Part shown: in pieces, positions 1 through 16,000 of the stretch
How positions within the stretch are numbered: position 1 is the stretch's first letter
Layout of the letters: every line of letters starts with the position of its first letter
Origin: Alkalispirochaeta sp.
Lineage (GTDB): Bacteria > Spirochaetota > Spirochaetia > DSM-27196 > Alkalispirochaetaceae
Assembly: GCA_965601925.1 (NCBI GenBank)
Contig: OZ271854.1
Coordinates: 3,776,001 to 3,840,000, forward strand
Length of the DNA: 64,000 bases
Direction of reading: 5' to 3'
Position numbers and translations under genes: made by a program
The notes under the pieces: generated by a model
The model's input: the letters and a program-made list of their open reading frames with translations, nothing else
The model's database searches: none
Told to the model about the DNA's origin: nothing

Positions 1-14
1 CACCGAACGCGACG

Positions 15-45
15 GTCCGGGAGCGCGCAATCGGCGCTCCCGGAC
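15..45. terminator. Perfect 12-bp GC-rich hairpin downstream of the minus-strand lipoprotein gene; probable terminator or mRNA stabiliser
   Basis: GTCCGGGAGCGC (15-26) pairs with GCGCTCCCGGAC (34-45), 7-nt loop; no clear U-tract. Confidence 0.55.
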
Positions 46-82
46 GTGTCGCGGCCGGCAGTCTGCTATTTGGGCGACGGAA

Positions 83-1285
83 CTACCACGATGCGGCAAC
101 TCGCGTGCTTGCCGAGTTGTACAGGTCGATGGGGAATACCCAGCCCAGCCCGATCGGAACCATGTTGATACCCACGCCTTGGTGCCAGGACCGAAAGACG
201 AGAACCGAACACACGAAGGCGCTGTTATTGATCGCAAATCCGTAAGGCTTACCAAGCTGAGCGCGCGCCCAGTTCGCCGCCCGAGTGTGATCCGTGCCGT
301 TCGCCTCCGTCCATACCTGTCTCCACGCGATCGGTATTCCGAGAAATCGCCTTGTGACGACGGACGTTACTCGACCGACTTTGAGGATATCCGCCTTTTG
401 CGGAGTATTTATCCAGAACTCAGCGGGTTCGTACTGCACGTTGTCGTTGGGCGGCCGATTGACACCGTTCACGATCGTGTAGCCCCACGGAGCCATCGAT
501 CCTACCCCCCACGCGGTGATGTTCAGAATGTTGTGATGTCCCGCCGGCGGTGAGCTCTCGCTCATGATACTCGCGTGCCCGAAGTCAAACCAAAATGCGG
601 CGAACGATGTCGGAACGGTACCGCTGCTTCCACTCCCGTGCCCCGGACGGTGCAGAATGATACGTCCCTGACGATGCGCTCCTCGTATGATGGAAAACTT
701 CTGCGCCTCCGAAAGCGCTGCAGTTTCCACAACAGAGGAGTGCTCGGCCTCGTATGCGGCCACGTACCGCTCGAGAGAGGGCATTCGCTCTTCCATTACC
801 GCGTGCATCTCCGCCACGGCTGCAGGATTCCGACTGTCGAATGCACGGTCGGGAGATCGACGGAAGAACTCTCTCATGCTGTCGTTACGCCACGCATAGT
901 ACGCCATGTCGCGTGGGGCCGTGCGTTCGCGTATGGTGTCAATCTGCAGATCGACCAGCGACTGCACCAGCGCCTGTTGCGACTCAACGGGAAGCTCGGC
1001 GAACACTAACGGATTGCCCTCTTCGTCCCGCAGATCCATATCGTGAAAACCCTCTGCAAAGGGATTATCCGCCGGTGCGGCACTCACGTGGAGTTCCCCC
1101 GAGGGATGCCCGTAGTAGACCAGCGAGTACAGATTTTCCCGATACGCTTCGAGCACCTCCTCGGAGTGCTGCACCTCAACATCGTCCGGGGACTCGTTCA
1201 GTAACCCCTGACATCCAGCCGTCGCGAGAACCAAGACCGCGATACCTAACGCGCGGACCACGCCTACGCTTTGTTTCTGAAACAT
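83..1285 (-). CDS. Lipoprotein with C-terminal permuted papain-like NlpC/P60 (YiiX/YebB-like) cysteine hydrolase domain
   Basis: Signal peptide with lipobox LATAG-C; His motif (FGHASI) precedes Cys motif (AQLGKPYGF...FVCSVLVFRSW...VFPIDL); GGAGG RBS upstream. Confidence 0.75.
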   Translation of the reverse strand: MFQKQSVGVVRALGIAVLVLATAGCQGLLNESPDDVEVQHSEEVLEAYRENLYSLVYYGHPSGELHVSAAPADNPFAEGFHDMDLRDEEGNPLVFAELPVESQQALVQSLVDLQIDTIRERTAPRDMAYYAWRNDSMREFFRRSPDRAFDSRNPAAVAEMHAVMEERMPSLERYVAAYEAEHSSVVETAALSEAQKFSIIRGAHRQGRIILHRPGHGSGSSGTVPTSFAAFWFDFGHASIMSESSPPAGHHNILNITAWGVGSMAPWGYTIVNGVNRPPNDNVQYEPAEFWINTPQKADILKVGRVTSVVTRRFLGIPIAWRQVWTEANGTDHTRAANWARAQLGKPYGFAINNSAFVCSVLVFRSWHQGVGINMVPIGLGWVFPIDLYNSASTRVAASW

Positions 1286-1712
1286 GAAAACAACCTCCTC
1301 CGTGTTTCATTTATGGTGTTCTTCAATAAATAATTGTATGAATACTCAATTTTTTTGCCATAGTTTTTTCAATAAAAAGCCATTTTTAATCTATTATTCA
1401 CTTCAATCACATATTTCAGGCTGTACGGTCTTTTTTTGGAAGAATGGCAGTTTTTCGTGATCGTTTTCTGATTGTGTTGGAGTGGTGCTCTTCAACGCCG
1501 TCTGATCGAACGACGGATGGTGCAACCGAAGCGCTCGGGTCGTGGCGTCGCCGATCCCGAACCGGAGCGTCCCCTCGGTTGATGTCGCTCCTCGCGGTCC
1601 TCCTGCCAAATCGACAAGATCCGACACCTGCCACAATCGAAGTGCTTTTTGTTGCAGTACGACCGCGTCGGGCGCAGCATGGTTGCAGAACATAAACGAG
1701 GAGGTCGTGAGA

Positions 1713-3116
1713 ATGGCTGCAACCGTTACGCAGGCGCGCATTCAGCGCTTCGGGCGCTATCTGAGCGGCATGGTTATGCCCAACATTGGGGCGTTTATCG
1801 CGTGGGGACTGATCACTGCGATGTTTATCCCTACCGGATGGATTCCTTCGGAACGACTATCCGCGTTGGTCGGTCCTATGATCCTATATCTGTTGCCCTT
1901 GTTAATAGGATTCACCGGCGGCCGCATCATGTGGAACATCCGCGGCGGTGTCGTCGGAGCGATTGCGACCATGGGGGTTATCGTCGGCGCCGATATTCCG
2001 ATGTTCATCGGTGCGATGATCATGGGCCCGCTTGGTGGGCTTGCGATCAAGAAGTTCGACGAGTGGGTCGAGCCCCATATTCCGGTGGGTTTTGAGATGC
2101 TGGTTAACAACTTCTCGGTAGGCATCATCGGTGGTTTGATTGCCGTACTGTCTCTGGTGACCGTCAATCCCGCCGTTCAGGCGCTGACGACGGCGTTGCA
2201 GACCGGAGTCGAGGCGATCGTGCGTATCGGTCTTCTGCCCGTCGCCTCCGTCCTTATCGAACCCGGGAAGATCCTCTTTCTCAATAACGCGATCAACCAC
2301 GGCATTCTCGGTCCTCTCGGCGCGGCGCAGGTTCAGGAGCTGGGCCAATCCATATACTTTCTTCTGGAGACCAATCCCGGGCCGGGACTCGGTATTCTAC
2401 TTGCGTACCTCGTCTTCTCCAAGGGAGCGATCAAAGACTCCTCAACCGGATCGATCATCATTCACTTCTTCGGCGGTATTCACGAGATTTACTTCCCCTA
2501 TGTGCTCATGAATCCCATATTGATTCTGGCGGTCATCGCCGGCGGCGCCTCGGGCGTGTTGGTGTTCGGAATTCTCGGCGCCGGCGCCGTTGCGACTCCG
2601 TCCCCAGGAAGTATCATCGCCCTCATGGCGGTGGCGCCGCGGGGAGGTCACGCGGCGATTCTCGCCGGTATCATCGTGTCGACGGCGGTGAGTTTTATCG
2701 TCGCCATGCCGTTTATCAGACGCTTTACGAAACAACAGGTCGACGGTGCAGAGACGCTGGAGCGCGCCAAGGAGCAAATGCGGGCGATCAAAGGTATGGG
2801 AACCGTCAAAAAGATCGTCTTCGCCTGTGACGCCGGCATGGGTTCCAGCGCCATGGGAGCCAACCGTCTCAAGAAGAAACTTCGAGCGGCGGGAGTCGAG
2901 GTCTCCGTCGAGCACTCCTCGGTCGACGAGGTGCCCGGAGACGCGCAATTGGTGATTTCGCATGTCAATCTCACCGACCGTGCCAAGGTCGCGGCTCCGC
3001 ACGCCCGGCACTTCAGCATCACCAATTTCGTAAACGCCCCGGAGTACGATGACATCGTGCGCGAACTGTCCGAAGGAAACGGAGCGAACCGGACCGAAAC
3101 CCATACGAGTGTATAA
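1713..3116 (+). CDS. mtlA: PTS mannitol-family EIICB component
   Basis: IQRFGRYLSGMVMPNIGAFIAWG, FLNNAINHG, ETNPGPGLG, HFFGGIHEIYFPY; EIIB motif FACDAGMGSSAMG; start moved to ATG 1713 after GAGGAGG RBS (ORF track start 1542). Confidence 0.93.
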   Translation: MAATVTQARIQRFGRYLSGMVMPNIGAFIAWGLITAMFIPTGWIPSERLSALVGPMILYLLPLLIGFTGGRIMWNIRGGVVGAIATMGVIVGADIPMFIGAMIMGPLGGLAIKKFDEWVEPHIPVGFEMLVNNFSVGIIGGLIAVLSLVTVNPAVQALTTALQTGVEAIVRIGLLPVASVLIEPGKILFLNNAINHGILGPLGAAQVQELGQSIYFLLETNPGPGLGILLAYLVFSKGAIKDSSTGSIIIHFFGGIHEIYFPYVLMNPILILAVIAGGASGVLVFGILGAGAVATPSPGSIIALMAVAPRGGHAAILAGIIVSTAVSFIVAMPFIRRFTKQQVDGAETLERAKEQMRAIKGMGTVKKIVFACDAGMGSSAMGANRLKKKLRAAGVEVSVEHSSVDEVPGDAQLVISHVNLTDRAKVAAPHARHFSITNFVNAPEYDDIVRELSEGNGANRTETHTSV

Positions 3117-3122
3117 GCGTGA

Positions 3123-3157
3123 GGCCGGTGGGCGCTGTGTCACAGCTCCTCCCGGCC
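3123..3157. other. Intercistronic imperfect hairpin between EIICB and EIIA genes
   Basis: GGCCGG/CCGGCC outer stem and GCTGT/ACAGC inner stem. Confidence 0.45.
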
Positions 3158-3191
3158 CTTTATCGTATCCCGTTAGAGTGTAAGGAAGACC

Positions 3192-3680
3192 ATGTCGAGT
3201 TTTGTTCAGCAAATACAGGAAAGCAACACGATCGCGGTGGACCGTCGGGCGGTCGACTGGGAAGAGGCGGTGCGCCTCGGCGGACGGCTCATGGTAGACG
3301 CCCAACTGGTAGAATCGCGCTACATTGACGCGATCGTACGAAATCACCGCGAAATCGGGCCGTACTTCATTATCGCGCCGGGTATCGCTATGCCCCACGC
3401 CAGGCCGGAAAACGGCGTCCTGTCCACCGGCTACGCTTTGGTGACCCTATCCGAACCGGTGGAGTTCGGCGATGAGGAGAACGATCCAGTGGATATCTTG
3501 ATCTTTGCCGGGGCGACCGACCGCGAAAGGCACAACCAAGAGGTCATACCGCAGATCGCAGAGTTGTGTGACAGCGAGGACGTCATCGACGCGTTACGAA
3601 ACGCCAGAGACGTTGCCGCGGTACGATCGATACTTACGGAATTTGAACGGGCGTTGGAAATGGGAGAGTCGGACCGGTGA
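3192..3680 (+). CDS. PTS EIIA component (mannitol/fructose family, CmtB/UlaC-like)
   Basis: DWEEAV...GPYFIIAPGIAMPHARPENG with the phosphorylatable His. Confidence 0.9.
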   Translation: MSSFVQQIQESNTIAVDRRAVDWEEAVRLGGRLMVDAQLVESRYIDAIVRNHREIGPYFIIAPGIAMPHARPENGVLSTGYALVTLSEPVEFGDEENDPVDILIFAGATDRERHNQEVIPQIAELCDSEDVIDALRNARDVAAVRSILTEFERALEMGESDR

Positions 3681-4948
3681 AAAGTATCGGCGCGCGACTC
3701 TACGGGAAGATGGACATTCGCGTCGAGGAGTTTGAGCTCCCGGCGATCGAAACCGACGAGATCCTGGTGCGAGTACACGCCGACAGCTTGTGTATGAGCA
3801 CGTTCAAGGCGGCAAAGCTCGGAGCGGACCACAAGCGGGTACCGGACGACGTCGCACAGCGACCGATTTTGGTCGGTCACGAGCTGGCCGGTGAGATCGT
3901 GGAGGTCGGGCACGCGTGGAAAGACCGATATGAGGCGGGGCAACGGTGTACCATACAGCCGGCGATCAACTATCGGGGCAGCATGGACTCGCCGGGGTAC
4001 TCGTATCAACACTGCGGCGGCGACGCCACCTACATCATTTTGCCGCGGGAGGTCATGGAAATGGACTGTCTGTTGACCCATTCCGTCTCGGACCATTTCC
4101 GGGCCGCCCTGGCGGAACCGTACTCTTGCGTGATCGGCGCCAGCCGCAGTCTATTTCGTACCGACCGGCGCAGCCACAACCATTACATGGGCATTCGCGC
4201 CGGCGGTACCATGGCCATCCTCGGCGGCGGGGGACCCATGGGACTTGCCGCGATCGACTACGCCCTGAGCGGCCCTCAACGGCCGGCGCGCCTTCTCGTC
4301 ACCGACGTCGATCAGGAGCGCCTGAGTCGGGCGCGACGTATCTTTCAACCTGTGGCCGCGGAACGCGAAATCGAGCTCTTTTTCTTCAATCCGGCCTCGT
4401 CCGACCACGCGGAACGGGATATGCAACGGATCGGTGGAACGGACGGCTACGACGATATCCTCGTGATGGTTCCCGTTGCAGAGGTGTTGGAGCAGGCAGA
4501 TCGACTGTTAGCGTTTAACGGATGTATCAACTTCTTCGCCGGGCCGACCGATCCGGCTTTCGTGGCGCGCATCAACTACTACGGCATACACTATCTCGAG
4601 CACCACGTCATCGGCACCACCGGGGGTACCGTGGACGATGAAAAAGAGGCGTTGGAGCTCCTGGAGCGCGGCCTTACACGTCCTCAGGCACTCGTGACCC
4701 ACATCGGGGGGCTCAACGCCGTACCGGATACCACGATGCGCTTAGCCGAGTTACCGGGCGCCAAAAAGCTGATGTACCCGGGTATCTATCTACCCCTCAT
4801 CGCTCTTGATGATCTGGAAGAAAGGGCTCGCGAGGACGAGTGGTATCGTCCGCTGGCAGATATCGTATCAAGCGCCGGTGGACTGTGGAGCGGCGACGCG
4901 GAGCGCTGGTTGCTGGAGCACGCGCCACGAATAGAGGACAGGGTCTGA
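3677..4948 (+). CDS. Zinc-binding medium-chain dehydrogenase, L-sorbose-1-phosphate reductase (SorE)/YggP-like
   Basis: SLCMSTFKA and GHELAG catalytic Zn motifs, LAEPYSC, Rossmann ILGGGGPMG, NFFAGPTD, THIGGL; GTG start overlaps EIIA stop. Confidence 0.85.
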   Translation: MKSIGARLYGKMDIRVEEFELPAIETDEILVRVHADSLCMSTFKAAKLGADHKRVPDDVAQRPILVGHELAGEIVEVGHAWKDRYEAGQRCTIQPAINYRGSMDSPGYSYQHCGGDATYIILPREVMEMDCLLTHSVSDHFRAALAEPYSCVIGASRSLFRTDRRSHNHYMGIRAGGTMAILGGGGPMGLAAIDYALSGPQRPARLLVTDVDQERLSRARRIFQPVAAEREIELFFFNPASSDHAERDMQRIGGTDGYDDILVMVPVAEVLEQADRLLAFNGCINFFAGPTDPAFVARINYYGIHYLEHHVIGTTGGTVDDEKEALELLERGLTRPQALVTHIGGLNAVPDTTMRLAELPGAKKLMYPGIYLPLIALDDLEERAREDEWYRPLADIVSSAGGLWSGDAERWLLEHAPRIEDRV

Positions 4949-4950
4949 TA

Positions 4951-5889
4951 ATGATTCTATGCGTGGGGCTGAGTCCCGCCCTTGGCCGCGTCGTTACACT
5001 TTCGCAGTTCGATCTCGGGGCGGTCAATCGAGCGACCGGATATCTGGAAGTCGCCGCGGGCAAGGCGTGCAACGCGGCACGCGTAGTAAGTCAGTTGGGG
5101 TACGAGGCGACCCTCGTCTCTCCGATCGGCGCCGAATCGTTAGCGCAGTACCGTAGCTTTGTAATGGAGGACGGGATACGGCTTCGTGCCGTGCCGTATC
5201 CCGGTAGGGTTCGCTGGGCGATCACTCTCGTAGATCCCAAACACGGCGCGACCGAGGTCGTGGTAGGAGAGCCGCAGACCGTGCCGAAGGAGGTCGTCGG
5301 AGAGCTCGTATCCGCCGTGGAGAACGAGATGTCGGGAGCGAGTGCGTGTCTTCTCGCCGGTAGCCGTCTTGCGGATATTCCGCGAGAGATCGTGCCCGTC
5401 GTAGCCCGGAGTGCGCAGGCTGCCGGTGTTCCCCTTTTTCTCGATATTCGAGGCGGAGATCTCGCGGCGGCCCTCGCTGCGATGACGCGCGAAACGGGTT
5501 CGGTAACCGTCAAAATCAATGAAGAGGAGTTTACGACCCTCGGAGCGGAAAACGGCACGTCGCACGCCCGCGGGGTACGCTCTCGGACGAGTCCGGCGTT
5601 CGACCTTTCCGAGTCGATATCGGCCTTTGCTCGGCATCACCGGTGCAATGTGGTGGTGACCCGTGGAGACCGTCCGGTGATTTACGCCGAGGCGAACGGC
5701 GACGGATACGCATACCCGGTACCGAAGGTCGAGGCGGTCAATCCGATAGGGAGCGGCGACACGTTTTTGGCCGCTCTGGCAGTTCGTCATGTAGAGAGGA
5801 ACTCATTAGAGAGCGCCGTTGCAGACGCGATCGAGCTCGCGAGCCGCAACGCAACGCTACTGCGGCCCGGGACGATACGGACTCACTAA
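4951..5889 (+). CDS. PfkB-family sugar-phosphate kinase, 1-phosphofructokinase/LacC-like
   Basis: N-terminal LSPAL...GAVNRA...AAGKACNAARV; KINEEE; C-terminal VNPIGSGDTFLA; start moved to ATG 4951. Confidence 0.85.
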   Translation: MILCVGLSPALGRVVTLSQFDLGAVNRATGYLEVAAGKACNAARVVSQLGYEATLVSPIGAESLAQYRSFVMEDGIRLRAVPYPGRVRWAITLVDPKHGATEVVVGEPQTVPKEVVGELVSAVENEMSGASACLLAGSRLADIPREIVPVVARSAQAAGVPLFLDIRGGDLAAALAAMTRETGSVTVKINEEEFTTLGAENGTSHARGVRSRTSPAFDLSESISAFARHHRCNVVVTRGDRPVIYAEANGDGYAYPVPKVEAVNPIGSGDTFLAALAVRHVERNSLESAVADAIELASRNATLLRPGTIRTH

Positions 5890-5913
5890 GCGGCCGTCAC
5901 TGAGGAGCGTGGT

Positions 5914-6162
5914 ATGGTGAAACGGACAATCGTAGTGCATAACAGCGAGGGACTTCACACGCGGCCGGCCAACCGGTTCGTGAGGCTCGCCAAGCAGCAC
6001 GACAGCGATGTCACCGTCGCCAAGAACGGCACAGAGGCGCCGGGGCGGAGTCTGCTCAAGATTATGAAGCTGGGGGTGGTACAGGGCGATACACTTGAGG
6101 TGCGATGCGACGGGCCGGACGAAGCGGCACTCCTTGCGGCGATCGAGGAGCTTCTGTCGTGA
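5914..6162 (+). CDS. ptsH: Phosphocarrier protein HPr
   Basis: GLHTRPA (His15 motif), RSLLKIMKLGV (Ser46 region), 82 aa. Confidence 0.93.
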   Translation: MVKRTIVVHNSEGLHTRPANRFVRLAKQHDSDVTVAKNGTEAPGRSLLKIMKLGVVQGDTLEVRCDGPDEAALLAAIEELLS

Positions 6163-7889
6163 TCCACGGAGTGGCCGCGTCAAAGGGGGTGGGTGTCGGC
6201 GCTGCATATCTCATACACGAGCCCGAGATCCCGACGGACCATATGACGCGACGTTCGCGGCACGGCGCATACGCCGATAGCGCGGCCGGTGAGATGGACC
6301 GTTTCTACCGGGGACGAGAGGTAGCGGTGGCCTACTATCGTGCCATCGTAGAGGTGGTGAAGACGCGCGCCGACGGCGACGAGGCGGAGATCTTCGAAGG
6401 ACATATTGAGATACTGTCCGACGATGAGCTACGGGATGCGGTCAGCCACGCGGTGCATCACACCGACGTCTCGGCGGAGCGGGCGGTCTTGAACTTTGCC
6501 GAGAAGACCGCAAAGGAGTTCGAGGAGCTCGACTCTGAGTATCTGCGTCAGCGCGGCAACGATATTCGTGACATCGGCAATCGCCTCGTGGAGGCGATGT
6601 ACTACGGATCGATCGCCGATCCGGGGCAAATTCCCGAACAGAGCGTCGTGGTGGCGATCGAGCTAACGCCGTCTGCGACGGCCCTCCTGGACGCATCACG
6701 GGTTGCAGCTATCGTCACCGAACGGGGAGGGCGCACCTCGCATGCGGCGATTCTGGCGCGTTCGCTCTCGATACCCTGCGTCACCGGCGCCGATAACGTC
6801 ATGAGGCGCGCTCGGCCCGGGGCGTGGATCGTGGTCGACGGCGGTGCGGGAACGGTTGTGTTCGACGCCGACGAGGCGACATGCGAACGCGCTCGCCGAC
6901 AACAGGACTCCGAGCGCGCGCAGCGAAAAAAGCAGGAACGGTGGGCTCGAGAGACGCCGGCGCGTCTCGCCGATGGACGGCCGATCCACCTGTCGGCCAA
7001 CGTCAACGGCGCGGCCGAGGCCCGTCGGGCCGTCGAGGTCGGAGCCCGCGGCTCAGGGCTCTTCAGAAGTGAGTTCTTTTTCACGCGATGCCCCGACTTT
7101 CCGAATCGGGATCAACAAGCCGCCGAGTATCGCGCGGTGTGCACGCTTCTTGCGCCCTATCCGGTGGTGGTCCGACTCTTAGATTGCGGAGCGGACAAAC
7201 CGCTCCCGTACGTCGACCGGCCGCCGGAGGACAATCCGTTTCTGGGAGAACGGGGAATACGATTCTTAGCCGCGCACCCCGATCGCCTTCGCGATCAAGT
7301 AGCCGCTATCGTGCGGGTGGCGTCGGAGGGGTACGCGATTCGACTGATGATTCCCATGGTGATCGATCGCGCGGAGATTGAGTCGGTACGGGCACTCGTT
7401 GATGACGAGCTCGCTCCCGGCGCCGCCGCCCCGCAGGTCGGCATCATGGTGGAGACGCCGGCGTCGGTGTTGCGTATCGCCGCACTTATCGAAGCGGTGG
7501 ATTTTATCAGCATCGGTACTAACGACCTCACGCAATACCTTTTGGCGGTGGATCGCGGCAACGCCGGGGTCGGACGCCTCTACGATGAGTTTCATCCATC
7601 GGTTATCACGGCGATCGACAGCGTTGCCTCAGCGTGTCGCGCCTCAGGCGTCCATGTGGCGGTCTGCGGCGATATGGCGAGCCACGCTGCGTCGGCTCTG
7701 GCGCTCCTCGCCCTCGGCGTCGACGAGTTAAGCGCCACCGGCTCGGCGATTTCCGACTTGAAGCGGCTGTTCTCCCGGGTTCGGAGCGACGATCTGCGCA
7801 AACTGGCGCGTCGTCTGAGAAACGCCGGGTCAGCCGCCGAGGCTCGGCGTGCGGCGGACGACCTCACCCGGAGTACTGAGGGGGTATGA
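6159..7889 (+). CDS. ptsI: PTS Enzyme I
   Basis: GGRTSHAAILARS phospho-His, GLFRSEF, EDNPFLGERGIR, SIGTNDLTQYLLAVDR, CGDMA; GTG at 6159 overlaps HPr stop. Confidence 0.93.
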   Translation: MIHGVAASKGVGVGAAYLIHEPEIPTDHMTRRSRHGAYADSAAGEMDRFYRGREVAVAYYRAIVEVVKTRADGDEAEIFEGHIEILSDDELRDAVSHAVHHTDVSAERAVLNFAEKTAKEFEELDSEYLRQRGNDIRDIGNRLVEAMYYGSIADPGQIPEQSVVVAIELTPSATALLDASRVAAIVTERGGRTSHAAILARSLSIPCVTGADNVMRRARPGAWIVVDGGAGTVVFDADEATCERARRQQDSERAQRKKQERWARETPARLADGRPIHLSANVNGAAEARRAVEVGARGSGLFRSEFFFTRCPDFPNRDQQAAEYRAVCTLLAPYPVVVRLLDCGADKPLPYVDRPPEDNPFLGERGIRFLAAHPDRLRDQVAAIVRVASEGYAIRLMIPMVIDRAEIESVRALVDDELAPGAAAPQVGIMVETPASVLRIAALIEAVDFISIGTNDLTQYLLAVDRGNAGVGRLYDEFHPSVITAIDSVASACRASGVHVAVCGDMASHAASALALLALGVDELSATGSAISDLKRLFSRVRSDDLRKLARRLRNAGSAAEARRAADDLTRSTEGV

Positions 7890-9892
7890 AGGCGCGGTAT
7901 CGAAGCATACTACGGCAACTCGCCGGTCGCGAAGGGTATTGTACGGTGGAGGAGATCGCCAACGCCTGCGGCGCCGGAGTACGGACGATCCATCGCGATC
8001 TTCAACACATAGAGCGACTATTGGCATTAAGAGGGGTTCGCTTCGAGCGGCGGCGGGGCCACGGGGTGCGCCTCCTGGACCCGCTTCCGGATGGACTCCC
8101 CGATTCGCACGCCTCCTCGAGCAGCATGGACGTCCACGGTGCGGCCGACCGTCCTTTCTTACTACTCCTCTATCTGATCGCCAACCCCGGGTGGTGCAAA
8201 CTCTCGGAGCTCGCGCACGTGTTTTTCCTAAGCGACTCCTCGGTGAGCACGGCTCTCGGGCACCTCGACGAATATCTGCCGACGGGTTTGGAGTTGGAGC
8301 GGCAGAAAGGCGTAGGCGTACGCATGCTCGGCGATGAGCACGCAGAGCGGCTCGCATTTATGGCCGTCTTCGCCCGCTTCTTTCCGCGCTATCTGCCGAA
8401 CACGCCCGATTCCGACGGACCGCGTCTACTCCGGTCGCTTCGCATCGGTAACGCGGGGCACCTCATTCTGCGCAGTATCACCGCCGCGGAAGAGACGTTG
8501 GGGTACCGCTTCGCGCCCGGGTACTCCAGCATGCTATACAGTTACCTGTTTCTCGTACGGCGACGTCTGCCGGAGGGGCGCTCCCTGGTCCGCCTTCCCG
8601 ATTTTCATACCGATCTTCCCGATTTGGTTTCTCGTGCCGCTCACGCCATGGAGCGGGCGGCCCTCGCCGACGGTATTGTCGGAGTCTTTCCGGAGACCGA
8701 GAAGATCTTCTTGGCCCGCGTGCTTGCCGCGTGCGAACCGTTGGAGCCGCCGAATATCATATCGGGCGGCTTGATCGGCGCGCTGGAAGTGTCCATAGAG
8801 CATACCATCGAGCGCGCTCTGACGCGGGTGGAGGAGTACGAGCACGTATGGCTCCACGATGACCCCAAACTCCTCAACTACCTCCGGCTGACGTTGGCCG
8901 CCACAACGCGGCGATTGGACCTCTTTCACCGCTGGTTGGGAGGATGGCTGCCTCACACTCACGGTGGTATCAAGCGCGGCGACGACACTCATATCGATAT
9001 TCTCGTCGACGAGTATCGCACGGCGCTCTCCCATACGTTCGGCGACCGCGTCGGGGGCGCTAACGGTGGAAACAACGACTTGTATCGGGAGCTTCAGGAA
9101 CCCTACCTTGCGATAGACGCTCGGTTAACTCACGTTCGGTTGCGCCGGGGTGCGGGTATGGCCGTCAAGGTTTTGTGCTACGAGGGCCTCGGTATGTCGG
9201 CGTGGCTGGGATCGATCGCGGAGAGCGTTCTCCCATCCGGCGCGACCGTCGATACTCGCTGGGAACCGGTGGACACTCGCGATTGGGATCTCATCATCGC
9301 CACCTATCCGATCACCGCGGACGATACGCCGTGCGTCGTCATCGATAGCGACAACTCGCCGGAGACGATTCGACAGCGCATCGATGAGGCGGTTCAGTCT
9401 ATCGTACGCGACGGTCCGAGCGAGCGCGCCGGCGAGCCCGCGACAACTTCCACGTCTGGACTGTCCCTGCCGGTGATCATGGCGGTGGTACGGACGTTCT
9501 TCGTCGCACCGTTGGAAGGCTCGGAGGAGGCGATGATACGCGCCGTTGCAGAGTTGGACCGTGGAGACTGCGACGCGCGGCAGCTTCTCGCCGATTTTCG
9601 GCGTCGCGAAGCGTACGGATCGCTCGTATTCGAAGAGGTCGGTATCCGACTTCTGCACTGTCGCTCCGATGGAATCTCGGAGCCGCGCGCCGGCGTCCTG
9701 CGCCCTCCGGACGCGCCGACGATTTTGGTCCTGGCGGCGCCGCGAACCGCGCCGCCGGAACACACCGGAGTCCTCTCCGAAATAGTAGTGGCCATCCATG
9801 ACGAGCCGGGATTTTCACGCCTTCTTTCGGTCGGCGAACCGGTTCGTCTTCAGGCTGCATTGATCGAGTTGTTCAACAAGCGGCTTGTATAG
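7886..9892 (+). CDS. MtlR/LicR-type PTS-regulated transcriptional regulator (HTH, Mga-like HTH, two degenerate PRDs, EIIB, EIIA)
   Basis: HTH (EIANACGAGVRTIHRDL), second HTH, EIIB motif VLCYEGLGMS, EIIA motif RREAYGS...LLHCRS; last gene of the PTS operon. Confidence 0.82.
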   Translation: MKARYRSILRQLAGREGYCTVEEIANACGAGVRTIHRDLQHIERLLALRGVRFERRRGHGVRLLDPLPDGLPDSHASSSSMDVHGAADRPFLLLLYLIANPGWCKLSELAHVFFLSDSSVSTALGHLDEYLPTGLELERQKGVGVRMLGDEHAERLAFMAVFARFFPRYLPNTPDSDGPRLLRSLRIGNAGHLILRSITAAEETLGYRFAPGYSSMLYSYLFLVRRRLPEGRSLVRLPDFHTDLPDLVSRAAHAMERAALADGIVGVFPETEKIFLARVLAACEPLEPPNIISGGLIGALEVSIEHTIERALTRVEEYEHVWLHDDPKLLNYLRLTLAATTRRLDLFHRWLGGWLPHTHGGIKRGDDTHIDILVDEYRTALSHTFGDRVGGANGGNNDLYRELQEPYLAIDARLTHVRLRRGAGMAVKVLCYEGLGMSAWLGSIAESVLPSGATVDTRWEPVDTRDWDLIIATYPITADDTPCVVIDSDNSPETIRQRIDEAVQSIVRDGPSERAGEPATTSTSGLSLPVIMAVVRTFFVAPLEGSEEAMIRAVAELDRGDCDARQLLADFRRREAYGSLVFEEVGIRLLHCRSDGISEPRAGVLRPPDAPTILVLAAPRTAPPEHTGVLSEIVVAIHDEPGFSRLLSVGEPVRLQAALIELFNKRLV

Positions 9893-9907
9893 GCGAACCT
9901 GGGAACG

Positions 9908-9947
9908 CGCCGTCACCGCACCGCTTGGAGAGTCGTGGGCGACGGTG
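9908..9947. terminator. Imperfect hairpin between convergent genes
   Basis: CGCCGTCACC / GGCGACGGTG with one GU pair and one mismatch. Confidence 0.35.
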
Positions 9948-9981
9948 TGATCAGTTGGAGTAGCGATCGCGATCTGCGGCG

Positions 9982-10659
9982 TCAACGGTGATCCACGTCC
10001 GCCTCAACGACGGCTGAGCTCGAAGACGAGGTCGTCGCCGGTGCTATCGTGGTCTCGTCCTGAAAATATTTTGCAAAAAGCTCCGATATAACGGCATTCA
10101 GTTGCATCGTCGCTCTTACCGCCGAGGCGATGAGTCTGATTTGGTCCGGTTTCAGATTCTGGCTGAGGAGGAGATCCATCGCGCTCAAAATTACCTGGAT
10201 CGGGTTCTTCGTTTGATGCGACATCTCGCCGAAGAACTCCACCTTCGTTTGCTCCAGAGACATCTCGCCTACGATATTTTTCACCTCTACCGGCACCGAG
10301 TCGAGTGCGAGGGACTGACACAGATATTCAAAGGCGTGTTCAATCGTGACGACTCCCAGGAAACGCCCATCGGCGTCGAAACACGGTAGGGCGCGATATC
10401 CCGTTTCGATGAGAAGCCGCGTCGCCGTATCGATCGAGTCGCCGATTTGGATCGAAGGTTTTGCAACCATACAATCGCCGATCAACGTCTTCTTGTGGGT
10501 GAGATCCTTGGGAGTGAGCAACCCGACGAAGCGCGACTCGTCTCGGATTACGATGCACGTGTGGTTGGAGAAAAGCTTCTCGGCGGCTCGAACGGGAGCA
10601 ACGGCGGGTAGGGTGACGAGGTCGGTGACAATGATCTTCTCGACCGTTTCACCTATCAC
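9982..10659 (-). CDS. Tandem CBS-domain protein with C-terminal HisKA (DHp) segment and no HATPase domain
   Basis: CBS pair (FVGLLTPKDL; ALPCFDADGRFLGVVT) followed by H-box FFGEMSHQTKNPIQVILSAMDLL; ends ~55 aa after the His. Confidence 0.75.
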   Translation of the reverse strand: MIGETVEKIIVTDLVTLPAVAPVRAAEKLFSNHTCIVIRDESRFVGLLTPKDLTHKKTLIGDCMVAKPSIQIGDSIDTATRLLIETGYRALPCFDADGRFLGVVTIEHAFEYLCQSLALDSVPVEVKNIVGEMSLEQTKVEFFGEMSHQTKNPIQVILSAMDLLLSQNLKPDQIRLIASAVRATMQLNAVISELFAKYFQDETTIAPATTSSSSSAVVEADVDHR

Positions 10660-11000
10660 TACAACTCGATACCTTCCGTAAAACGTCGAACGGTAAAATT
10701 GACGTTTACCGCCTCGCTCTCGTCGAGAAAGGGGAACACGTGCTCGGCGAGCACCTTCTCGACCTGCGGATACGCCAAACGTCTCACTACCTGCTTACTG
10801 ACGACCACCGAACCGATGTTCGGATGCTTGGGATTGTCCACATCATAAAAGTCGTACTGATCCGGTACCAAGAATCTGAACGACTCAAAGATGCCGAGTT
10901 TGCCGTGTGTATAGCGACTCCCGAGCACGAGTATGTCGGTCACCGGCGGCAACTTAACCGCTTCAAAGTCCAATCTCACCTCGTATCGATATTGCGGCAT
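10659..11000 (-). CDS. Hypothetical 113-aa cytoplasmic protein, translationally coupled to the CBS-HisKA gene
   Basis: GGAGG RBS upstream, globular protein-like composition, TAG/GTG 1-nt overlap with the next gene. Confidence 0.75.
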   Translation of the reverse strand: MPQYRYEVRLDFEAVKLPPVTDILVLGSRYTHGKLGIFESFRFLVPDQYDFYDVDNPKHPNIGSVVVSKQVVRRLAYPQVEKVLAEHVFPFLDESEAVNVNFTVRRFTEGIEL

Positions 11001-11161
11001 TATCGACGACCTCCATAGCGCGCAAGATACTCAGTTATTCCACTTATCCGGGCAACGTAAACAGTATTTCATACTAAGCATAGAATTGTAAAATGATAAT
11101 AAAGAGTTTCATATTATGAAATGTTGTCTACGATCGGTATCGATCCCTCGCAGATTGCTTG

Positions 11162-11191
11162 TTGACACGTCCCGCGACAACGTGGTAATTT
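11162..11191 (+). promoter_or_regulatory. sigma70 promoter of tRNA-Tyr
   Basis: TTGACA (11162-11167), 18 nt, TG-extended TAATTT (11186-11191), GC-rich discriminator. Confidence 0.65.
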
Positions 11192-11206
11192 CCGCGTCGA
11201 CTTTTT

Positions 11207-11288
11207 GGGGAGTTTCCGGAGCGGTCAAACGGGGCAGACTGTAAATCTGTTGGCTACGCCTTCGCAGGTTCGAATCCTGCACTCCCCA
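11207..11288 (+). tRNA. tRNA-Tyr (GTA), CCA not encoded
   Basis: Acceptor GGGGAGT/ACTCCCC, anticodon loop CTGTAAA, long variable arm, GGTTCGAATCC T-arm. Confidence 0.96.
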
Positions 11289-11290
11289 TC

Positions 11291-11329
11291 TCCTTCGCGA
11301 TCACACGGCGTCGCGAGGGATTTTTTTTT
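11291..11329 (+). terminator. Rho-independent terminator after tRNA-Tyr
   Basis: TCCTTCGCGA/TCGCGAGGGA stem followed by T9. Confidence 0.85.
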
Positions 11330-11353
11330 GCCTCTTATGGTATGATGGCGGTG

Positions 11354-11821
11354 ATGATGCAACCTTCCTTTTGGAATCGCGGCCTCCGTTTCGTATGTAC
11401 CCAATGCTCTCGATGCTGTCGGCATGACAGCGGGTACGTCTTTCTATCCGAAGACGATCTGAAACGGTTGTTGCAGTTCACCGGTCTTATGCGGGAGGAG
11501 TTTATCGTCCGTTACGCCGCGTGGGCCCCATTCGGTATTGAGGACCACCTGTCGCTTGCCGAACAAGACAATAAAGATTGTGTCTTCTGGAAGGACGGTG
11601 GATGCTCCGTGTATCCCGCGCGACCCTTGCAATGTAGGACGTATCCGTTTTGGTCGCATATTGTGGATTCCGAAGAGCATTGGGCGCGTGAGGCGTCCGA
11701 ATGTCCCGGAATAGATATCGGGCCGTCTCGTAACGGCGAGGATATCTCTGCGGCACTGCATGCGCGTCGCGCCGCGCCGCCGATCCATCGTCCGCGTGAG
11801 ACCGGATGGAGAGGCGAATGA
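11354..11821 (+). CDS. YkgJ/UPF0153-family cysteine-cluster (putative Fe-S) protein
   Basis: FVCTQCSRCC...CVFW..GGCSVYPARPLQCRTYPFW...CPGI; start could be 11342, 11345 or 11354. Confidence 0.85.
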   Translation: MMQPSFWNRGLRFVCTQCSRCCRHDSGYVFLSEDDLKRLLQFTGLMREEFIVRYAAWAPFGIEDHLSLAEQDNKDCVFWKDGGCSVYPARPLQCRTYPFWSHIVDSEEHWAREASECPGIDIGPSRNGEDISAALHARRAAPPIHRPRETGWRGE

Positions 11822-12762
11822 AGTTTACCGTGTGGGGTGCACGGGGTTCTCATCCCGTTCCGCTCACCCCTCAAGCTATACGAAGCAAGATCGCGACCGT
11901 CGTACAGCGCATCCGTCCCGGCGATCTGGTGAACTCCGATTCGCGCGAGCGTTTTTTGGCCTCGCTCCCGGCGTGGCTGTTCGGTACTACGAGCGGCAAC
12001 ACGGCGTGTGTGCAGCTGGAGTTGGACGAGTCCGGTCGACAGTTCATTTTCGATGCGGGAAGCGGCATCATCGGGCTCGGTTCGTCGCTGACTCACGCTG
12101 CGGTGATGCCGACCGAGTTTCATATCTTTTTCACCCACTTCCACTACGACCACGTGCAAGGATTGCCGTTCTTTATGCACGCGTACAATCCGAGCATACC
12201 GATACACTTTTACAGTCCCCTCGACGGCCTCGAGGCGATTCTGTCGCGCCAGATGCACCATCCCTATTTCCCGGTTACGATGGAAGATCGAATGTCCAAT
12301 CTACATTTTCACCAAATCTCTCCCGACGGGGTCGATTTGTACGACGCGGCCGTCCGGTGGAGGGAGCTTAACCATCCGGGGCGCGCTTTCGGATATCGCG
12401 TCGACTACCGTGGTCGCAGTTTTGCCTACGTAACCGACGTAGAGCTTCAGGAGGGCGATTTCACAAAGACCGCTGAAAACGCGCGGTTCTTTCGAGACGT
12501 CGATGCGATGATCCTCGATACGCAGTACACTCTCGATGAGGCGATCGAGAAGTATAACTGGGGGCACTCATCCTTTAGTTTGGGTGTCGACTTTGCCGTC
12601 GCGTGGGGAGTAAAGCGACTGTTCATGTTTCACCACGAACCGACGTACGACGACAAGAAACTCGACCAGAACGTGAACTCGGCGCGGTGGTATGCCAACC
12701 GGAGCGGTGGAGATACACTCGAGATCGACTTGGCGCGGGAGGGCGTTACCATCGATGTCTGA
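11818..12762 (+). CDS. Metallo-beta-lactamase-fold hydrolase (phosphodiesterase-like)
   Basis: WGARGS, GNTACV, DAGSG, THFHYDHVQG, LNHPG, TDVE, WGHSS, FHHEP. Confidence 0.88.
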   Translation: MKFTVWGARGSHPVPLTPQAIRSKIATVVQRIRPGDLVNSDSRERFLASLPAWLFGTTSGNTACVQLELDESGRQFIFDAGSGIIGLGSSLTHAAVMPTEFHIFFTHFHYDHVQGLPFFMHAYNPSIPIHFYSPLDGLEAILSRQMHHPYFPVTMEDRMSNLHFHQISPDGVDLYDAAVRWRELNHPGRAFGYRVDYRGRSFAYVTDVELQEGDFTKTAENARFFRDVDAMILDTQYTLDEAIEKYNWGHSSFSLGVDFAVAWGVKRLFMFHHEPTYDDKKLDQNVNSARWYANRSGGDTLEIDLAREGVTIDV

Positions 12763-12946
12763 CCGAGCGCCGTCGGAGTTTTCCATGGACGACGGGGAGC
12801 AACGAGAGCTGTTCGTTTTTTTGAATCGAAGTTGTGAAACCCTTAGTCCTACCCTGTGCGAGGTACTGCGTCGCCTCGAGCGCGAGCTCTACCGCCGACT
12901 CTCGATCGCCGACATGGAAGAGCTCATAAAAAAGTCGACCGAATAA
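12755..12946 (+). CDS. Small hypothetical helical protein (~63 aa)
   Basis: ATG overlaps the MBL gene end; fills the gap; amphipathic helices (LRRLERELYRRLSIADME). Confidence 0.6.
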   Translation: MSDRAPSEFSMDDGEQRELFVFLNRSCETLSPTLCEVLRRLERELYRRLSIADMEELIKKSTE

Positions 12947-13028
12947 CGTGTAGTTCGACGCGTGGGGAGGGGAAGCGCCGAGGAATGATAACACTCGCCG
13001 GGCGTGATACATATCGGGAACGAGCGCT

Positions 13029-16000
13029 ATGAATACATCGATAGTGAAGCATACTTCGACCGTTGTCCGTCGTATCGGTCTTCTCATGATTGCGATCCTC
13101 GTGGGAGCGGCTTCCCTTGCGGCCGATGAGTCGGACCCCGCGGAGACCTACCGACCGACGTTGTGGCGGCCCCGCACACTGGGCGCTTCGGTCGGCTCGT
13201 TCGCAGGAGACGATGATCCACTTTCGATGTTGTGGCTTCCCCATCTCACCGCCGGTACGCGGGAAACACGTGTCGCCGCCTCCGGAGGGATAGCGCTCGG
13301 CGACGGAACGACGGGCGGTGCAACGGCGATTACGGTACCCGGTCGGCGCTTCGCCTGGACCGGCGGAGTAGGATTTCTCGGTGACGACGACGGCACAATC
13401 GTCCACGGATCGGTCGGCGGTGCGCGTCCGTTGGGCGCTCGCCTGAGCGCCGGCGCCTCTTTCGGTGCAACCGTTGCCGCCGGCGACGGCGCCGCCGAGG
13501 TAGGCCTCGGTATCGATGTCGGAGCGCGATACCGACTACCGCCGGTCGGTGCGATCTCGCGTGTCGAGGTGCACGCGGCGATGCTCGATATCGGAACCGC
13601 GGCGCGTAGAGAGCCGTTTGAGCCGCTTATTGCACCCTTCACGCCCTACGTCGGTGTGCGTGCCCGCATCGTAGAGAACGAATCACTTGCGATCGACGTA
13701 TCCGCGGCAGTGCGTTCGGAGAGCTTTGCGCAAACGTGGATCGAGACGGTCGGCGCGATCCATATTGCTCGCCGTGTATCGGTTACGATGGGCCTCAATA
13801 CGCCGCTCGAAACGGATGCTGAACGTGTGTGGCCGGGAATCTCGGTCGGCGCCGCGATACCGCTCGGCACCGGCGAGACGCGCGCTTCGGCCGCGGCGCA
13901 GCCCACAACCGACGGGTCGGCCCTCTTGGCCGGTGAGTTCGCGGCGGTATTTCCGTCGACCGATCGCGCCACACCCGAAGCGCGTTTCGCGGTGGTCGAG
14001 CCCGATTCGGATCGAGCGAGAATCGGAGTCGGGGCGTCGCTTCGAGGGGATGTCACACGCGTATACTTGGCGCCCCTTTCCGGTCTGGAGCAGGTCGTCG
14101 TCGAGGTGAGCACGGAAGACGACTTGTGGATCGGCGGTATCGAGGCGGCACTCTTTGCATCGGACGGGACTGAGATTCGCACTTGGAGCATGCAACCGCT
14201 GGGAGATCCGACCGTCCTCGGTGATATCTCCGAACGATTGACGTCCGATCTCAACCATCGCTCCTTTTCCGCGGAAGTGGTGTGGGGTGTCGCCGACGCG
14301 CCCTCCGACGGACGCTATCGTCTCGAGTTGTCCGCGTTCGATGCGGCGGATAATCGTCGCGATATGCCGGACATCGAGATCGTCGTCGATCGTACGCCGC
14401 CGAGCCTTTCGATGCATCTTGACCTTCTCGCCGCGCGCGACAACGAGTCGTCGAATCCACTCGTCTCGGTGATTGTCACCGATGACGTAACCGGAGAAGA
14501 GGTGCCGATCGCCTTGGACCCCGATGGGGAGCTCTCCGTCGAGTTGCACTATGATGACGCCGAACGAATCGAAGTCGACGTCGTAGATCAGGCGTATCGC
14601 CGCCTCTTTTCCCTTCCCGTCGTACCCGAGACGAACGGTAGGCACGACACGCTGGTGGCGGTGTGGTCGGGGCAGGATGAACACGGACGTCGCCTCGTCG
14701 AGGGAGTATATCGTATCCGTGCCGTTGCGAGGGACCGTATCGGCAACACCCATACCGTCACGAGTCCTCCGATCATCGTACGACCGCAGCCCGCCCGATT
14801 CAGTCTGGCCGTCTCCGATCGCATCGTCTCACCGAACGGAGACGGACTGAGGGACGCGTTGACGGTGCTCCCGGAGCTTCAACCCATCGCGGGTCTTTCG
14901 GAATGGAAAATCGAGTTGCGTCGCATCGACGAGGAAACGAGCGTCCGCGAATGGTCGGGGATTGACCTGCCGCCCGAGCGACTCTCCTTGGACCGACGGA
15001 TATTGCCAGCCGACGGAGAGTACTATCTCCGCGGGGTCGCGCGCTACCGAAACGGCATCACGGCCGAAGACGTAACCGAACGCTTTATCGTTGACAGCGT
15101 GCCTCCGTCGGTCGATTTGGCCCTATCGAGTCCGATCGTCTATCCCGATCGGCTGCGGGAGCTCGGGATTTTCCTCGAAGGGGACGACACGATCATTGAG
15201 GGCAGACTGGTGCTCCTCACCGACGACGGGCAAGCGGCGGTCACGATCAGCGAGTTCGGCGCCCTACCTGAGTACGTTCCGTGGCAGCTCAACGCTCCGG
15301 ACGGGTCACTATATCCTCCGGGAGAGTACGGTATATACGTGGAGGTCGCCGACAACGCCGGAAACCGGGCACGCTCGGTCACGCGACGGTTTGAACTGAC
15401 CCCGCGCCTCGAGGGCGCCGACCTCGTAGTACAACGCCCCTTTTTCAGCCCCAACGGCGACGGACGCTTTGACGACATCGTCTTCGCCACCGAAATTTCC
15501 GATCGCGCCGGTGCGGGCTCGTTTTCCATCGAGATATTCCGTGACGGATCGGGTGACGCGCGTTCGGTACGCCGATTTTCCGGAAGCTTACCGGCTCCCC
15601 AACGCGTGACATGGGACGGCCGAGACGATCGGGGACTCCCCGTGGAAGACGGACGGTATTACGGCGAGCTCACCGTCGCCTCCCAGGGGCGAGGCGAGGT
15701 CCGTGCGCGTTCTCAGACGTTGACGGCCGATACGACGCCGCCGGCAGCCGGACTGCGACTCGTCGGACCGGATCGAGTTTCGCCGGACGGAGACGGAGTG
15801 CAGGACGAATTGATGCTCAGGATCGATCGCGGCGACGCATCGCGCGTGAACGTCGAGGTTACCGCCGCGTCCGGAGGGACGCCGATTGCACTCGTCGAAA
15901 ATCTCGCCGGCGACGGTATCTCCTGGCCGCCTCTGACGGTCGACGGACGCCCGCTCTCGGACGGAGAATACCGTGCGGCGATCGTCGCCGTCGACCGCGC

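Follow-up and report, generated by a model that had tools for sequence, protein, structure and literature searches.

A stretch of 64,000 nucleotides from Alkalispirochaeta sp. (assembly GCA_965601925.1, contig OZ271854.1, positions 3,776,001 to 3,840,000; the whole stretch is called the window) carries a plus-strand operon of seven genes (1713-9892) in the order mtlA (IICB), IIA, SorE/YggP-like dehydrogenase, PfkB kinase, HPr, enzyme I (EI) and regulator. In the proposed route the mannitol-type phosphotransferase system (PTS) would deliver mannitol 1-phosphate (mannitol 1-P), the dehydrogenase, in place of MtlD, would oxidise it at C2 to fructose 1-phosphate (F1P), and the linked kinase would turn F1P into fructose 1,6-bisphosphate (FBP), which enters glycolysis. 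This conversion of mannitol 1-P to F1P and then to FBP is quite probably what the operon encodes. The mannitol-1-phosphate 2-dehydrogenase suggested in the initial annotation of this DNA is supported by comparative genomics, namely by its exclusivity with mtlD, by a swap between the two within one genus, by the linkage to the kinase and by 1-phosphofructokinases (1-PFK) in genomes where no fructose PTS was found. Mannitol as the substrate is predicted from the near-identity of the permease to mtlD-linked permeases, and the C2 regiochemistry is suggested by the chemistry of SorE together with the kinase linkage; that the divergent window kinase acts on F1P is indicated by its replacement by a canonical 1-PFK in a same-genus relative. 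No published description of the oxidation of mannitol 1-P to F1P was found in the literature searched, outside of which the older SorE enzymology lies.

The initial annotation had read positions 1713-5889 as a mannitol-type EIICB and EIIA followed by a SorE/YggP-like zinc dehydrogenase and a PfkB kinase rather than by mtlD. Profile scores and identities bear this out, and HPr, EI and the regulator continue the operon to 9892. The EIICB scored above both mtlA cut-offs (TIGR00851, 503.9 bits against 468.4; NF011663, 630 against 589), and its gene is preceded by the ribosome-binding site GAGGAGG (1698-1704). The EIIA fell below every NCBIfam cut-off, its top match being UlaC-like (143 bits), and is 67-68% identical to the IIA of two mtlD-type operons (genomes G004 and G021). 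The genes for EIIA, dehydrogenase and kinase overlap or abut as originally described: the GTG start of the dehydrogenase gene (3677) overlaps the end of the EIIA gene by 4 nucleotides, and the ATG of the kinase gene (4951) lies 2 nucleotides past the dehydrogenase end. The HPr/EI and EI/regulator overlaps are 4 nucleotides each. Orthologues of the regulator, which is kept at the operon end in relatives, matched HTH_11, Mga and, weakly at the C-terminus, EIIA_2. No mtlD was found in the operon or in positions 1-14000 of the window, and a scan for promoters and terminators remained at chance level (5 against 2.8 +/- 1.9; 10 against 6.4 +/- 2.2).

Loci with mtlA were chosen without regard to the partner gene from three samples: the order (99 genomes; 66 with a SorE-family match, 11 with mtlA and 2 with MtlD above the cut-off), the phylum (301 genomes, 16 with mtlA, the 15 others of which were typed) and the class Clostridia (399 scored genomes, 20 with mtlA at 24 places; 20 regions were fetched, covering 21 places in 18 genomes). 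Seven of the 11 order loci are of the SorE type and two of the MtlD type, the remaining two being cut short; the 15 phylum loci comprise 2 with SorE and kinase, 12 with an MtlD-family gene and 1 with neither, and the 20 Clostridia regions 7, 12 and 1, respectively. The two types occur together at none of the 42 typed loci (16 SorE against 26 MtlD). The co-occurrence survey proposed earlier, of mtlA with sorE-like and 1-PFK-family genes, yielded 16 SorE-type loci, 10 with such a kinase and none with mtlD. Among metagenome loci (the best 80, obtained with a query that favoured this branch) 15 had mtlA in view, and none of these 15 had mtlD. A one-off arrangement was rejected, the arrangement being kept in 7 genomes of the order and at 15 of the 80 metagenome loci.

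The dehydrogenase gene directly follows IIA at seven mtlA loci (G000, which is the window's genome, G002, G006, G013, G015, G073 and G098); in G072 it stands at the contig start, before HPr, EI and the regulator. The operons of G004 and G021 run mtlA-IIA-HPr-EI-regulator-mtlD with neither dehydrogenase nor kinase, and their MtlD proteins score above the equivalog cut-off. The loci of G009 and G071 are cut short; in G009 IIA adjoins HPr, as in the mtlD type. The window EIICB is 83% identical over 448 residues to that of G004, from which it is predicted to transport and phosphorylate D-mannitol, and 76% identical to that of G021. In a quick, unrooted EIIC tree of 64 rows the SorE and MtlD labels interleave: they change 11 times, and starred branches force at least five of these changes. 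The permeases of the two mtlD-type operons lie with the window EIICB inside a starred 10-row clade. We infer that mtlD replaced the dehydrogenase and kinase in G004 and G021. In its predicted working the locus resembles an operon for mannitol catabolism, without being a canonical mtl operon.

The window dehydrogenase is 45-47% identical to the annotated SorE of K. pneumoniae and YggP of E. coli. Full-length homology (44-47% identity), zinc ligands, the NAD glycine motif and an acidic residue place it in the SorE/YggP family of zinc-dependent medium-chain dehydrogenases/reductases (MDR). Residues C39, H68, E69, E147, G186-P187-M188-G189 and D210 are invariant across 13 aligned rows; C39, H68, E69, E147 and D210 correspond to the zinc ligands and the NAD determinant established for MDRs. 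The structure model (predicted local distance difference test score 87) has an MDR fold, no solved structure among the fold matches listed exceeds 22% identity, and the fold search matched the model to MDRs in general but did not tell their substrates apart. The closest named homologues are from Spirochaetia. Genetic context, substrate-site signature and tree branch all differ from those of SorE proper, and by these marks the protein is a member of the SorE/YggP family and not SorE proper. A sorbose operon was rejected because neither a mannose-family PTS nor SorD is present at the locus.

Of the 32 mtlA-linked dehydrogenases 30 carry the motif GTTGG; GTSGG is found in 65 of the 70 that are associated with a short-chain dehydrogenase/reductase (SDR)/E1 context and in both cmtA-linked ones. 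In a quick tree of 62 rows a branch with support 80 separates the 12 mtlA-linked rows from the others, the YggP-type rows being their sister group (support 87). The window protein lies in a starred 11-row sub-branch in which EPYSCVIGAxR(S/G)L(F/Y)R, or a sequence close to it, replaces H-A-x-Y-H. A second SorE paralogue of G000 (C1:2866168, 54% identity) was rejected as a member of the same pathway; it belongs to another tree branch and has no PTS nearby.

Oxidation at C2 is suggested by analogy with SorE. L-Sorbose and D-fructose differ at C5 only, glucitol 6-phosphate and mannitol 1-P differ only at the last carbon but one, counted from the phosphate, and the F1P/mannitol 1-P pair has the same configuration as the SorE pair at the three centres nearest the phosphate. 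Since the sugars differ only at those far centres, the same hydride face would link F1P and mannitol 1-P. Purified Klebsiella SorE is also reported to reduce F1P to mannitol phosphate. The reaction given for SorE in the available part of PMC12817954 is the reduction of L-sorbose 1-phosphate to D-sorbitol 6-phosphate.

The best family matches of the kinase are the 1-PFK models TIGR03168 and TIGR03828 (125 and 122 bits against cut-offs of 216 and 292); it matches PF00294 with 108 bits, and its best solved relatives are FruK and LacC. The motifs VNR (lid), AAGK, NxxE and GSGD are kept, and SPALG replaces NPAxD. Fold motifs and nearest relatives assign it to the 1-PFK/LacC/Pfk-2 group of PfkB kinases. 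The TIGR03828 score (121.6 against 292 bits), the SPALG motif and its position outside the FruK clade indicate that it is not FruK. The earlier description "1-PFK-like" holds as far as the best families are concerned, but the scores are far below the 1-PFK cut-offs. A second kinase of the same divergent clade is encoded at G000:C1:4179804-4180750 beside a PfkA-family gene, a position kept in G002 and G004.

A 1-PFK-family kinase gene lies beside 10 of the 16 SorE-type and 1 of the 26 MtlD-type loci selected by mtlA, several contigs being short, and at 11 of the 15 mtlA-bearing metagenome loci. The operon kinases of G002 (297.7 bits) and G394 (317.1 bits) exceed the TIGR03828 cut-off of 292, and those of G735, G632 and G422 exceed that of TIGR03168 (328-351 bits). 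A search of these five genomes gave no fructose PTS IIC, and with a canonical-type 1-PFK in the operon F1P therefore needs another source there. In G000, a single contig that is 96.7% complete with one mtlA, neither a fructose PTS IIC nor a FruK above the cut-off was found. G072 and G073, without an operon kinase, have an unlinked FruK above TIGR03828, and each of the four SorE-type Clostridia without an operon kinase has a separate fruK-fruA pair elsewhere. Both fruA and a 1-PFK-family gene are also present in every one of the ten MtlD-type Clostridia examined, so that the presence of these genes alone does not discriminate in Clostridia.

If the dehydrogenase were instead an analogous mannitol-1-phosphate 5-dehydrogenase giving fructose 6-phosphate (F6P), with the kinase a 6-phosphofructokinase (6-PFK) or a passenger, the exclusivity with mtlD would also be explained; zinc MDRs acting at C5 are known, such as galactitol-1-phosphate 5-dehydrogenase, and 6 of the 16 SorE-type loci show no kinase. 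This is nevertheless very unlikely, as it leaves the canonical 1-PFKs in operons of genomes without a detected fructose PTS unexplained, and a sixth 6-PFK would be redundant in G000, which has five PfkA-family genes besides one class II FBP aldolase and two GatY-like aldolases. In addition, other branches of the dehydrogenase family are paired with a second dehydrogenase, which is MtlD-like in nine of nine loci picked by coordinates, and in further branches the partners are a sorbitol-6-phosphate-dehydrogenase-like SDR and an FGGY kinase. Such pairing fits a family acting at the carbon next to the phosphate.

Several observations weigh against the F1P route. Many of the genomes are incomplete metagenome-assembled genomes and related to one another, and the counts given above are not independent. 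The single group of all mtlA-linked dehydrogenases is supported at only 80 in a quick tree, and one mtlD operon (G763) also holds FruK. The main caveat for G000 is an unlinked MtlD-family gene (C1:30606-31880) with the sole PF01232 match of the genome (C1:30681). It scores 171 bits against the MtlD cut-off of 356, and it aligns with the K, N and H and with four Arg/Lys residues of S. aureus MtlD, which are catalytic and phosphate-binding residues according to the portion of PMC6623548 available. Its product could oxidise mannitol 1-P. The initial annotation had raised the case of a separate mtlD that accounts for growth on mannitol; none lies in the operon, and elsewhere in G000 this MtlD-like gene, with intact residues and a score below the cut-off, may be such a gene. 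MtlD-like genes are also present in the SorE-type genomes G006, G013 and G015 of the order and in G394.

The unlinked MtlD-like enzyme might be the one that oxidises mannitol 1-P in G000, the operon dehydrogenase and kinase then being accessory, decaying or working in reverse; in the reverse form the MtlA-type permease would bring in fructose as F1P, from which the kinase would make FBP, and the dehydrogenase would reduce F1P. The lack of a detected fructose PTS in G000 agrees with this, as does the kinase being about 50% identical to its same-genus orthologues, against 79-83% for dehydrogenase and permease. However, EI (59%) and the regulator (52%) diverge as fast as the kinase, and the MtlD-like gene is accompanied by a PfkB kinase of its own and by a GPH or ATP-binding cassette (ABC) transporter, also in genomes without mtlA (G008, G016, G020). 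At least 12 SorE-type genomes show no MtlD-like gene: no substantial MtlD-family gene was found in G002, G072, G073, G236, G398 and G399, nor in seven SorE-type Clostridia, where one weak match reached 72 bits. Finally, four Clostridia have mtlA and sorE besides a separate full fru operon. We consider this explanation unlikely.

The region around the MtlD-like gene (L009, G000:C1:27417-38887) contains a GPH symporter, an odd PfkB kinase and the MtlD-like gene before a glucitol-family PTS, the PTS part consisting of a SorC-like regulator, gutM, srlA, srlE as two genes in swapped order, and srlB. A DRL/SAF oxidoreductase, HPr and EI follow, and no SrlD was seen. The pair of kinase and MtlD-like gene recurs in genomes without mtlA and may be a module of free-hexitol kinase and hexitol-phosphate dehydrogenase.

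Further points against F1P as the intermediate come from the substrate sites of both operon enzymes. The window kinase lacks the aspartate of NPAxD, a contact to a sugar hydroxyl. In a tree of 31 rows (one a stray unlinked kinase) its divergent clade stands apart from E. coli FruK, from LacC, from the kinase of a tagatose operon and from a protein resembling Pfk-2, so that the kinase phylogeny gives no substrate. Most of the window dehydrogenase sub-branch uses a kinase of this clade, whose divergence could mean a changed substrate. The specificity of the dehydrogenase may also have moved, because R-S-L-F-R replaces the H-A-x-Y-H seen in SorE, YggP and the FruK-linked forms. The sub-branch might thus have turned to another polyol, for instance by oxidising glucitol 6-phosphate, the SorE product (as stated in the accessible text of PMC12817954), to L-sorbose 1-phosphate in a reversal of SorE, with the divergent kinase and a GatY-like aldolase, of which G000 has two, acting downstream. 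This, too, is improbable: the permease shares 83% identity with one whose operon holds a true MtlD, in G002 the same dehydrogenase signature occurs together with a canonical 1-PFK, and G000 has a separate glucitol-family PTS. Oxidation of mannitol 1-P to F1P remains the preferred reading; the canonical 1-PFK of G002 and the undiverged permease both speak against a changed substrate. Residues that determine FruK specificity were not named in PMC12585703.

The operon resembles the canonical mannitol PTS (mtlA/mtlF, MtlD, F6P) in its EIICB and EIIA, and in the same genus shares the backbone of HPr, EI and regulator. It differs in that an unrelated zinc MDR and a PfkB kinase replace MtlD, a long-chain, metal-free dehydrogenase acting at C5, with predicted flow through F1P to FBP and not to F6P. 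SorE of the L-sorbose pathway is alike in identity (46-47%), in the zinc and NAD motifs and in the long inserts of the family; it works, however, in the reductive direction and beside SorD and a mannose-family PTS, whereas the window has a mannitol-family PTS, a kinase and no second dehydrogenase, and the substrate-site residues are NANYH and GTSGG in SorE against RSLFR and GTTGG in the window. In Haloarcula hispanica mannitol is likewise converted through F1P to FBP by a PfkB-family 1-PFK; there, in contrast, uptake is by an ABC transporter, free mannitol is oxidised to fructose, a ketohexokinase forms F1P, and neither a PTS nor a mannitol phosphate is involved (PMC11519228, in the part available).

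In the cryptic E. coli cluster cmtB-cmtA-yggP-yggF(glpX)-fumE(yggD)-yggC, too, genes for a mannitol-family IIA and IICB directly precede that of a dehydrogenase with 45% identity, and mtlD is absent. The initial annotation had pointed to the position of cmtBA beside yggP. The parallel is weaker than was implied. The cluster has an FBPase-II and a P-loop kinase and no PfkB, and YggP keeps GTSGG in place of GTTGG; CmtA, 48% identical, groups (support 99, starred) with permeases linked to divergent MtlD-like genes (L093, L188, L189 and L192 with L010 and L079). The partners yggF (FBPase II), yggD and yggC are absent from the window operon, and tblastn at 1e-5 gave no GlpX or YggC match in G000. 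The substrate of the cmt clade may thus be another polyol, not mannitol. Locus L093 also holds ribulose-phosphate-3-epimerase-family and SIS genes. To our knowledge no reaction has been assigned to YggP, and the available parts of the literature naming it gave no function. CRP activates cmtB, as reported in the portion of PMC3105977 available.

Other contexts of the dehydrogenase family were observed. At L063-L071 (e.g. G008:C18, G006:C114 and G003:C53) a SorE paralogue adjoins a divergent MtlD-like gene, together with a xylose-isomerase-like gene, a PfkB kinase, DeoR and a split transketolase, which looks like a redox shunt from a ketose 1-phosphate to a ketose 6-phosphate for some sugar. The commonest context (L023, L031, L037-L054 and many of L105-L174) contains E2/E3 and a fused E1 alpha-beta of a 2-oxoacid-dehydrogenase-like complex, an unannotated protein of 470 residues, an N-terminally extended SDR (best match sorbitol-6-phosphate dehydrogenase), an FGGY kinase and the SorE-like gene, and spans spirochaetes, Clostridia, Lentisphaerae and Chlorobiota.

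Genes of the operon and the basis of their assignment (HTH, helix-turn-helix)
Feature	Position	Strand	Basis
EIICB (mtlA), mannitol-family PTS	1713..3116	+	TIGR00851, NF011663; IIB phospho-Cys motif ACDAGMGSS
EIIA (Fru/Mtl type PTS)	3192..3680	+	PF00359, 105 bits; phospho-His motif MPHA
SorE/YggP-family zinc dehydrogenase (MDR), predicted mannitol-1-phosphate 2-dehydrogenase	3677..4948	+	Identity, motifs, MDR fold
Divergent PfkB kinase, 1-PFK/LacC group, predicted fructose-1-phosphate kinase	4951..5889	+	Profile matches, motifs
HPr (ptsH)	5914..6162	+	TIGR01003, 85.5 bits, above cut-off
Enzyme I (ptsI)	6159..7889	+	TIGR01417, 450 bits, above cut-off
Large HTH regulator, likely PTS-controlled, MtlR/BglG kind	7886..9892	+	Weak HTH matches only

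The operon is flanked on the minus strand by a lipoprotein-like open reading frame of 400 residues (83-1285), transcribed away from it and with a weak match to Peptidase_C92 (permuted papain-like), and by a protein of 225 residues (9982-10659) with two CBS domains and HisKA and no HATPase match.

On balance we favour the view that the GTTGG branch is a dedicated mannitol-1-phosphate 2-dehydrogenase, with which mannitol taken up by the PTS would have a second route (mannitol 1-P to F1P to FBP). On this view the route has been exchanged with MtlD several times, also between members of a single genus, and makes up roughly one third of the mtlA loci sampled from Clostridia (7 of 20); the spirochaete sub-branch of the window would use a non-canonical 1-phosphofructokinase that has lost the NPAxD aspartate. 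Mannitol catabolism through the PTS is taught and annotated with one exit, from MtlD to F6P. If the route is as proposed, many genomes scored as having mtlA without mtlD, and hence an incomplete mannitol pathway, would have a complete one that standard annotation would miss. A large family labelled "L-sorbose 1-phosphate reductase" or "zinc-binding dehydrogenase" would gain a testable function with GTTGG as its sequence mark, E. coli yggP would gain a candidate reaction, and the enzyme activity would be one so far unnamed. The sister operons, with the same permease and two endings, offer a clean test system. MtlD is under evaluation as an antimicrobial target (PMC11784389, available part), and organisms with the F1P route would not depend on MtlD.

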